From assembly GCF_024700885.2 (NCBI RefSeq), contig NZ_CP117016.1: a stretch of DNA of 64,000 nt. One strand, written 5' to 3'. The DNA is from Escherichia coli. GTDB lineage: Bacteria; Pseudomonadota; Gammaproteobacteria; Enterobacterales; Enterobacteriaceae. The first letter of the stretch is position 1; every line of letters begins with the position of its first letter. The notes beneath the pieces were generated by a model. That model had not been told where the DNA came from and searched no databases. It was given only the letters and a program-made list of their open reading frames with translations. Below, one piece after another: positions 33,259 through 35,007 of this stretch. The position numbers and the translations under genes were made by a program.

Positions 33259-33438
33259 AAAAACTGGCGCGACCTGCCGCGCTATAAACTAAAAAATTAC
33301 ACAAAATCATTCGCACTGCATCGAGACGGAAAGTGAATGAGGGCCGGGGAGCGTACTCGCAGTACGTGACTCGGGCGAATGAGCGTAGCCGTCGATGAGG
33401 CAGTGTGAAGGATGAAGTGTAAATAAAAAAGGAAGTGA

Positions 33439-33828
<390 letters not shown>

Positions 33829-33961
33829 TTCCTTATTGGGCGGTGAAACGTTACCGCCCAACGCTTTCTTCTCCCTTCGTAAAATCACCGCAATATCTAT
33901 CTTCACCACGGCATATTCCTGCGTGTCGTCCTCATTTTTGCGAGGCGTTTTCCAGAAATGA

Positions 33962-33996
33962 ATGTAATGCATATGTAATGCTATAATGCATTACAC
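33962..33996. promoter_or_regulatory. Candidate operator/promoter of the relBE-like pair: repeated TGTAATGC motifs and palindrome TAATGCATTA overlapping a TATAAT -10 box
   Basis: Repeat motifs read directly from sequence 25-60 bp upstream of the antitoxin start. Confidence 0.4.
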
Positions 33997-34019
33997 TTTT
34001 CATAATTACCGGAGGCATA

Positions 34020-34262
34020 ATGGCCACACTTAACGTCCGCCTGGATGACAAACTGAAAAATGAGGCTTATGCGGTGCTGGAAAAATTAAATATCACGCCT
34101 ACTGAAGCAGTGCGACTGCTGTTTCAGTACGTTGCGGAAAATGGACGAATGCCGGTAAAAACGCTCACTGTCAGTGATAGTGAAGAAGCCTTGTTACGCA
34201 CTGTCAGGGAACGACTGGCCAACCCACAAGAGGCCATTAAGGTCCGACTGGATGAACTATGA
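34020..34262 (+). CDS. RelB/DinJ-family antitoxin (relB paralog)
   Basis: 80-aa ORF resembling E. coli RelB as I remember it; RBS GGAGG upstream. Confidence 0.8.
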   Translation: MATLNVRLDDKLKNEAYAVLEKLNITPTEAVRLLFQYVAENGRMPVKTLTVSDSEEALLRTVRERLANPQEAIKVRLDEL

Positions 34263-34542
34263 GCTGGCGTTTGATCCGCGGGCGCTGAAAGAGTGGCAAA
34301 AACTGGGCGTGACAGTCCGGGAACAATTTAAAAAAAAGCTTGAGGATGTGCTGAAAAGGCCGCGCAATCCATCGGCTAAACTGCGGGATTTACCGGACTG
34401 CTACAAAATTAAGCTGCGCACACAGGGATATCGCCTGGTTTATCAGGTTAACGATAAAGAGTTGCTCGTGTTGGTGATAGCTATTGGTAAGAGAGAGAAC
34501 TCAGCCGTTTATGAAGACGCGACTAAACGGCTGGATGAGTGA
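34252..34542 (+). CDS. RelE/ParE-family mRNA interferase toxin (relE paralog)
   Basis: 96-aa ORF starting at MNYELAFDPRALKEW..., overlapping the antitoxin by 11 nt; strongly RelE-like (PDCYKIKLR, GYRLVYQV motifs). Confidence 0.85.
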   Translation: MNYELAFDPRALKEWQKLGVTVREQFKKKLEDVLKRPRNPSAKLRDLPDCYKIKLRTQGYRLVYQVNDKELLVLVIAIGKRENSAVYEDATKRLDE

Positions 34543-35007
34543 CTAACGCAAATGATGCACCACCTGATTGCTGCTGCCGCGCCAGATCAGGGAAGGGTCT
34601 TTTAAATCCTGCACAAATTTGCCGTCGACCAGTACGTTAATCAAATCAACAACCTGCATTTGCGCAGCGTTGAGTTCGTCGAGTTTATAGCCTGTCCACA
34701 CCCAAATGTCTTTACCCGGACATTCGGCGCGGATTCGTTGTACCAGTTTCAGAATATCCGGCACGTTTTGCGGATGCAGCGGATCGCCGCCGGAGAGGGA
34801 AATACCCTGGCGTTTGATGCGAGTGTCATTCAGATCGTTAATGATCTGGTCTTCCATTGCTTTGGTAAATGGCTGACCGGAATTTACCCGCCAGGTGCTT
34901 TTGTTATAGCAACCGGGGCATTCATGAACACACCCGGAGACAAACAGGGTGCAGCGAGTGCCGGGGCCGTTGACGATGTCGACAGGATAGTACTGATGAT
35001 AATTCAT
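34543..35007 (-). CDS. nrdG: Anaerobic ribonucleoside-triphosphate reductase activating protein
   Basis: 154-aa radical-SAM activase ORF (CxxxCxxC region). Confidence 0.95.
   Translation of the reverse strand: MNYHQYYPVDIVNGPGTRCTLFVSGCVHECPGCYNKSTWRVNSGQPFTKAMEDQIINDLNDTRIKRQGISLSGGDPLHPQNVPDILKLVQRIRAECPGKDIWVWTGYKLDELNAAQMQVVDLINVLVDGKFVQDLKDPSLIWRGSSNQVVHHLR

Follow-up and report, generated by a model that had tools for sequence, protein, structure and literature searches.

The window analysed here is a 64-kb stretch (64,000 nucleotides) of an Escherichia coli chromosome and matches several complete genomes at 100% identity. Its gene order runs from pmbA and an intact cybC (128 aa) through a cluster of short repeats to a relB-like gene and a relE-like gene, followed by nrdG and nrdD on the opposite strand. 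The relB-like/relE-like pair is antitoxin-first and bicistronic, with an 11-nt overlap and both genes intact, and the repeated motifs lie 25-58 nt upstream of it. The features of the locus are:

33836..33861, plus strand: terminator-like hairpin after cybC, with an 11-pair stem (6 G-C pairs) and then a T-rich tail.
33962..33972: site 1, ATGTAATGCAT, the distal direct copy of TGTAATGC, at the would-be -35 position.
33973..33983: site 2, ATGTAATGCTA, the second direct copy, its 3' end overlapping the TGn and bases 1-2 of the -10 hexamer.
33979..33987, plus strand: predicted extended -10 element TGcTATAAT, read from the sequence, with its hexamer at 33982-33987.
33986..33996: site 3, ATGCATTACAC, the inverted copy, covering the predicted transcription start.
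34011..34015, plus strand: Shine-Dalgarno GGAGG of the relB-like gene, conserved in orthologs.
34020..34262, plus strand: relB-like antitoxin gene, 80 aa with a ribbon-helix-helix N-terminus; presumed repressor binding the repeats.
34252..34542, plus strand: relE-like toxin gene, 96 aa; presumed co-repressor.

The antitoxin matched Pfam RelB (PF04221, 6e-16) and the NCBIfam equivalog NF008412 (130 bits; cut-off, 96), and the toxin matched ParE_toxin (7e-15). Against structures of the K-12 proteins, the antitoxin hit RelB (4fxe_A, 1e-20; 2k29_A, 3e-13) and the toxin hit RelE on the ribosome (4v7k, 2e-35); by our own count on these alignments, 38/80 residues (about 48%) are identical to K-12 RelB and 61/94 to K-12 RelE. 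Toxin residues K52, K54, R61, R81, and Y87, which we take to be the catalytic or active-site residues of RelE, are all identical to K-12 RelE in the 4v7k alignment. A non-toxic RelE variant, R81A, was used in PMC2812701. In K-12 RelB, S3, residue 5, and R7 have been assigned base contacts, and K13 and S28 backbone contacts (PMC2812701); the antitoxin of the window has T3, N5, R7, K13, and T28 at these DNA-contact positions, all identical or conservative. Also conserved with K-12 RelB are the C-terminal RelE-binding segment and D53 and R65, the two residues that a model of the K-12 complex implicates in dimer-dimer contacts (PMC3507626). On these alignments, the downstream genes are a true RelB/RelE type II toxin-antitoxin module and a paralogue of K-12 RelBE.

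We found the pair in 454 of 5426 complete E. coli genomes (about 8%), every time on the chromosome. K-12 lacks it, and the K-12 cybC pseudogene sits 44 bp from nrdG. Orthologs with 80-91% protein identity occur in Salmonella, Citrobacter, Enterobacter, Cronobacter, Klebsiella, Kosakonia, and others, and the pair is syntenic with nrdG across Enterobacteriaceae. In genera other than Escherichia, a gene for a 458-aa PRD/EIIA-type regulator (47-1423 of locus L018) stops about 20 nt short of site 1. E. coli has lost this gene along with its neighbours, and some 80 bp of sequence specific to Escherichia (33862-33943) separates the cybC terminator from the putative operator. E. coli MSB1_4I (L051 1480-1800, the same locus as window positions 33940-34545) has lost relE through recombination at an 8-bp CTGGATGA repeat common to the 3' ends of relB and relE, leaving an orphan relB that ends in RLDE. 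Coverage of the locus is below 80% in 63 of the 454 E. coli genomes, so partial loci may be fairly common.

The segment 33960-33996 reads gaATGTAATGCATATGTAATGCTATAATGCATTACAC. It holds three copies of TGTAATGC, at 33963-33970 and 33974-33981 on the plus strand and at 33988-33995 on the minus strand, in units centred near 33967, 33978, and 33991 (centre spacing 11 and 13 bp). The two direct copies belong to a perfect direct repeat, ATGTAATGC, with a spacing of 11 bp, and the 10-nt arms TGTAATGCAT and ATGCATTACA (33963-72 and 33986-95) show 100% complementarity. TATAAT lies exactly between copies 2 and 3, and a further palindrome, TAATGCATTA (TAATGC/GCATTA, 33984-93), joins this hexamer to site 3. 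The sequence-only reading had described repeated motifs and a palindrome over the -10 region of the relBE-like promoter, and both the sequence and the coordinates of that description, 33962-33996, are borne out.

Across the 64-kb window, TGTAATGC occurs 8 times against 2.4 expected, and three of these copies fall within 33 bp. The gapped palindrome TGTAATGC-N4-8-GCATTACA occurs once in the window and in none of 100 shuffles. When any 8-mer on either strand was allowed, 33963-33995 was the sole place in the window where one occurs three times within 35 bp, and of 200 sequences of 64 kb simulated under a first-order Markov model, only 2 had any such triplet cluster. To see how the repeats are conserved, we fetched 35 loci with antitoxin relatives and aligned the two genes along with 200 nt of upstream sequence. 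Exact copies were counted over 34 aligned sequences (the window and 33 orthologous loci), and entropies were taken over 32 enterobacterial rows:

Site 1: exact 8-mer in 24/34; entropy 0.50 bits.
Site 2: exact 8-mer in 33/34; mean entropy 0.037 bits (33973-33981).
Site 3: exact GCATTACA in 31/34; entropy 0.050 bits.
relB codon position 2: entropy 0.16 bits.
relB codon position 3: entropy 1.13 bits.
Spacer from site 3 to the Shine-Dalgarno (33996-34009): entropy 1.34 bits, drifting freely.

Sites 2 and 3 are constrained more strongly than the second codon positions of relB, and what is conserved in them is the sequence itself, beyond the ability to pair. These figures bear on the possibility that the repeats are functionless, the product of chance or of a slippage duplication. 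An 11-bp unit can indeed be lost by slippage: in MSB1_4I an 11-bp deletion has removed one of the two direct ATGTAATGC copies and only the core palindrome is left. However, such clusters are as rare in simulations as noted above, and the conservation of sites 2 and 3 holds over roughly 30 species; this conservation excludes chance, and we regard a functionless origin as exceedingly improbable.

A strict sigma-70 scan found no promoter at 33962-33996 because the -35 is poor, the best candidate matching only 2/6. The -10 assignment comes instead from the string TGcTATAAT and its pattern of conservation. Among sigma-70 promoters, the extended -10 consensus TGnTATAAT can function without a -35. 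The hexamer in the orthologs is TATAAT (11), TAAACT (10), TATATT (4), TATTAT (2), TAAAAT (2), TATACT (1), or TATAGT (1), so that every one has the form TAnnnT preceded by TGn and positions 3 to 5 are free. This pattern of variation fits the information profile of a sigma-70 -10 box, with the proviso that the TG, T1, and T6 of the element also belong to the flanking 9-mer repeat units, and only A2 is therefore repeat-independent evidence for the -10. Judging from the sequence, transcription most likely proceeds from the extended -10 promoter TGcTATAAT (33979-87) with no usable -35, and normal -10 to +1 spacing would place the start at about 33993-33996. In the supplements of Salmonella dRNA-seq papers, we found no mapped start for the Salmonella pair STM4449/4450 (SL1344_4379/4380).

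In E. coli the operon needs a promoter of its own because the cybC terminator (33836-61) lies upstream, and in other genera the upstream reading frame ends so close to site 1 that there is space for a compact promoter only. Three other promoter elements were considered and rejected: TTGCGA (33938-43) as a -35, with no -10 at 16-18 bp; CATAAT (34001-06), with no -35 and no conservation in orthologs; and TGTAAT itself as a -10, since it is without the essential A at position 2.

The inverted repeat could, instead or additionally, form an RNA hairpin that acts as a terminator or attenuator for upstream transcripts (cybC, or the PRD/EIIA-type gene elsewhere). A terminator scan lists 33974-33995 followed by CTTTTCAT, RNA 33955-34012 has a folding energy of -14.8 kcal/mol (z = -3.9 relative to shuffles), and in other genera the upstream frame terminates only about 20 nt ahead of site 1. 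However, any inverted-repeat operator scores well in folding by construction, and this stem is A+U-rich with 3/8 G-C pairs, short of what defines an intrinsic terminator. Its T-tract is short and poorly conserved, with CTTTTCAT found in E. coli only, ATAATATT in Salmonella, and AAAATTCC in Klebsiella, within a spacer that varies as freely as its entropy indicates. A hairpin would also leave unexplained the direct copy at site 1, the TAnnnT loop, and the match to the K-12 operator described below, and cybC already has a strong terminator. A search of 33400-34700 against Rfam (E <= 1) returned no RNA family. Since the arms are invariant, with no compensatory change, protein recognition is favoured over a structural stem, and we consider the RNA reading improbable.

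The protein most readily proposed is the antitoxin. The K-12 relBE operator, relO, belongs to the Qin prophage (PMC2812701, PMC3507626) and consists of four hexads, [A/T]TGT[A/C]A, in two abutting 12-bp pseudo-palindromic half-sites, TTGTAATGACAT and TTGTAATTACAA (PMC2812701). RelB recognises these hexads, and relO is bound by RelB2 and RelB2E with repression of its promoter. The K-12 relBE upstream region reads gcgatacTTGTAATGACATTTGTAATTACAAgaggtgtaagacATG. In the window, the hexad ATGTAA occurs at 33962-67 and 33973-78 on the plus strand, and GTGTAA (5/6) at 33996-91 on the minus strand; the partner hexads, ATGCAT or ATGCTA, retain TG. A single substitution and the lack of one base separate site 1, as ATGTAATG-CAT, from the first K-12 half-site, TTGTAATGACAT. 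This hexad match, together with contact residues T3, N5, R7, K13, and T28, makes the repeats the expected target of the RelB paralogue.

The palindrome also precedes distant homologues of the antitoxin. It is found upstream of RelB homologues in Erwinia (CAGATGTAATGC-TATAGT-GCATTACATCTG) and Volucribacter (TGTAATGC-CAAATT-GCATTACA) and on an Acinetobacter plasmid (TGTAATGC-AATTT-GCATTACA), whereas K-12-type RelB genes on plasmids and in Aeromonas retain K-12-type operator sequence instead; the motif thus travels with this RelB subfamily. Site 1 is present in most sampled enterobacterial orthologues but absent in Erwinia, Volucribacter, the Acinetobacter plasmid, and E. coli MSB1_4I, which marks it as an auxiliary site. 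In an unbiased scan of viral contigs, TGTAATGC-N6-GCATTACA was found in 8 contigs, none of them beside a relB/relE homologue, so the palindrome alone is not diagnostic outside this gene family. Two related viral contigs (L044 10760-10900 and L045 40-170) carry six copies of TGTAATGC within about 140 bp, including a palindrome, TGTAATGC-TTAGAA-GCATTACA, and three tandem copies (TGTAATGCTTGTAATGCTTGTAATGC); no relB/relE homologue was detected in the fetched DNA of these two contigs.

The repeats might also be bound by another regulator, for example a global transcription factor, and not by the antitoxin, given that TGTAA-like half-sites resemble parts of other enterobacterial operators. The consensus sites of CRP and LexA are TGTGA-N6-TCACA and CTGT-N8-ACAG, respectively; by eye, against these consensus sequences, a CRP or LexA site was rejected because the spacing does not fit. 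A different regulator is very unlikely because the palindrome accompanies RelB homologues across unrelated contexts and hosts, as on the Acinetobacter plasmid and in Volucribacter and Erwinia, and the core of the repeats is shared with the RelB-bound relO hexad.

Taken as a promoter and operator, the segment had been read from the letters alone as an autoregulated toxin-antitoxin operator with repeats overlapping TATAAT, and this layout gains support from the RelB/RelE homology, the relO hexad match, and the 33-locus footprint. We consider it very likely that 33962-33996 serves a chromosomal relBE-type toxin-antitoxin operon as promoter and operator, and likely that the repeats are antitoxin repressor sites through which the operon represses itself. 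Each TGTAATGC(A) unit is a pseudo-palindrome, TG-N5-CA, and the beta-ribbon of a RelB-like ribbon-helix-helix dimer would enter the major groove at each unit, the three units facing roughly the same side of the helix. The conserved core palindrome, TGTAATGC-N6-GCATTACA, would consist of sites 2 and 3 and bracket the -10 hexamer, and site 1 would be an extra site over the -35 position. Occupied sites would exclude RNA polymerase or stop opening of the -10, and the operon would repress itself for that reason. By homology with K-12, binding is probably strengthened by sub-stoichiometric amounts of the RelE-like toxin, whose excess would release the complex.

Whether this amounts to conditional cooperativity, as the sequence-only reading suggested, we judge to be about evenly balanced. 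In that kind of regulation the toxin:antitoxin ratio sets the affinity for the operator, with tighter binding at 1:2 and release under toxin excess. In the K-12 model, a closed RelE-RelB2-RelB2-RelE complex sits on two adjacent sites and excess RelE leads to a clash (PMC3507626). The K-12 geometry is not directly transferable to three sites with a different spacing, and conditional cooperativity may not transfer unchanged because the closed heterohexamer model has no place for a third dimer.

A more elaborate joint reading, which combines a block of -10 melting, alternative site pairings, and cross-regulation with the K-12 paralogue, is speculative and on balance doubtful. Under it, a core palindrome that clamps the -10, plus a third site, would not be fillable by the K-12 closed heterohexamer. 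With the -10 clamped and a third site present, this subfamily might block -10 melting and not occupy the start site, and the complex might switch between pairings (sites 1 and 2, or 2 and 3) as the toxin:antitoxin ratio shifts. Since K-12 and this locus have the TGTAA core and the base-contact residues in common, the paralogous antitoxins might cross-regulate each other's promoters in strains that have both.

This kind of operator is ordinary and to be expected in type II toxin-antitoxin operons, existing annotation already places the genes in the RelB/RelE family, and the current understanding of toxin-antitoxin autoregulation is unchanged. The analysis provides a precise operator and promoter map, as predicted, for a RelBE paralogue of E. 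coli (about 8%), Salmonella, and many other Enterobacteriaceae, and a fragment of about 33940-34020 should serve as a compact reporter of the module, a use that the sequence-only reading proposed and that is reasonable by homology.

Among the closest known systems is the Salmonella Typhimurium pair STM4449-STM4450, an ortholog by sequence and by its position beside nrdG (STM4451). The pair in LT2 has been listed as relEB-like (PMC8708949; also PMC3868539, a retracted paper drawn on here for its table alone). In the Salmonella arizonae and diarizonae loci (L009 and L010), the operator block is identical to that of the window. Salmonella has about ten extra genes between cybC (STM4439) and the pair. 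The literature we searched contained no description of the STM4449/4450 operator or start site, searches on relBE with nrdG and on EMSA or autoregulation of Salmonella RelB returned no study of this operator, and the motif string gave unrelated primer matches only.

The proposed arrangement also resembles the operators of phage P22 Arc and other ribbon-helix-helix proteins, where at least two repressor dimers occupy consecutive major grooves along the same side of the DNA and the sites are pseudo-symmetric, their centres rich in A+T. Compared with relO, Arc has its sub-sites one bp nearer to each other (PMC3507626), and sites 1 and 2 here, spaced by 11 bp, are like Arc in this respect. The P22 Arc operator is unrelated in sequence and works without a toxin co-repressor, and the likeness drawn between the proteins is that of their fold class.

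Features in common with K-12 relO are the TGTAA core, a homologous RelB repressor and RelE co-repressor with conserved contact residues, an antitoxin-first operon with overlapping genes, and pseudo-palindromic sites about one helical turn apart that overlap the promoter and start region. The differences from relO are that the predicted -10 lies inside the palindrome, that there are three sites, and that the unit is shorter. K-12 relO lies downstream of its -10 box, GATACT, and K-12 RelB dimers protect from -10 to about +17 on one helix face (PMC2812701), whereas here the -10 hexamer falls between units 2 and 3. K-12 has two 12-bp half-sites, compared with three 8-9-bp units here, unit 1 being at the -35 position, and within a unit TG and CA lie one bp closer to each other than in relO. 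The K-12 half-sites abut, and insertion of bases between them abolished repression (PMC2812701), whereas 2-6 bp lie between sites 2 and 3. Unlike in K-12, the conserved unit extends to TGTAATGC and the predicted promoter is of the TGn extended -10 type.

In register, the match to the 24-mer relO is 15/24. An alternative tiling of 33973-84 and 33985-96 as two K-12-like 12-bp half-sites reaches these 15/24 relO identities with only the outer hexads good, and we prefer the 9-mer model because it explains every invariant base. Given three units, a -10 between units, and the 15/24 match, the operator appears to be the same kind of element and no copy of K-12 relO. Within the 5'UTR, cATAATTACcg (34001-34011) resembles the second K-12 relO half-site, TGTAATTACAA, at 7/11 positions; this likeness is probably coincidental since it is found in Escherichia only and is not conserved in other genera. 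At the K-12 relBE promoter (L001 5895-5925, minus strand), TTGTAGTGC followed by GATACT resembles ATGTAATGC followed by TATAAT here, at 11/15 positions. The K-12 TTGTAGTGC may be what decay has left of a former site on the upstream side of the -10, in which case both operators would derive from a common bracketing layout. With the same recognition core in another layout, the two operators offer a natural comparison for the influence of operator geometry on toxin-dependent cooperativity.
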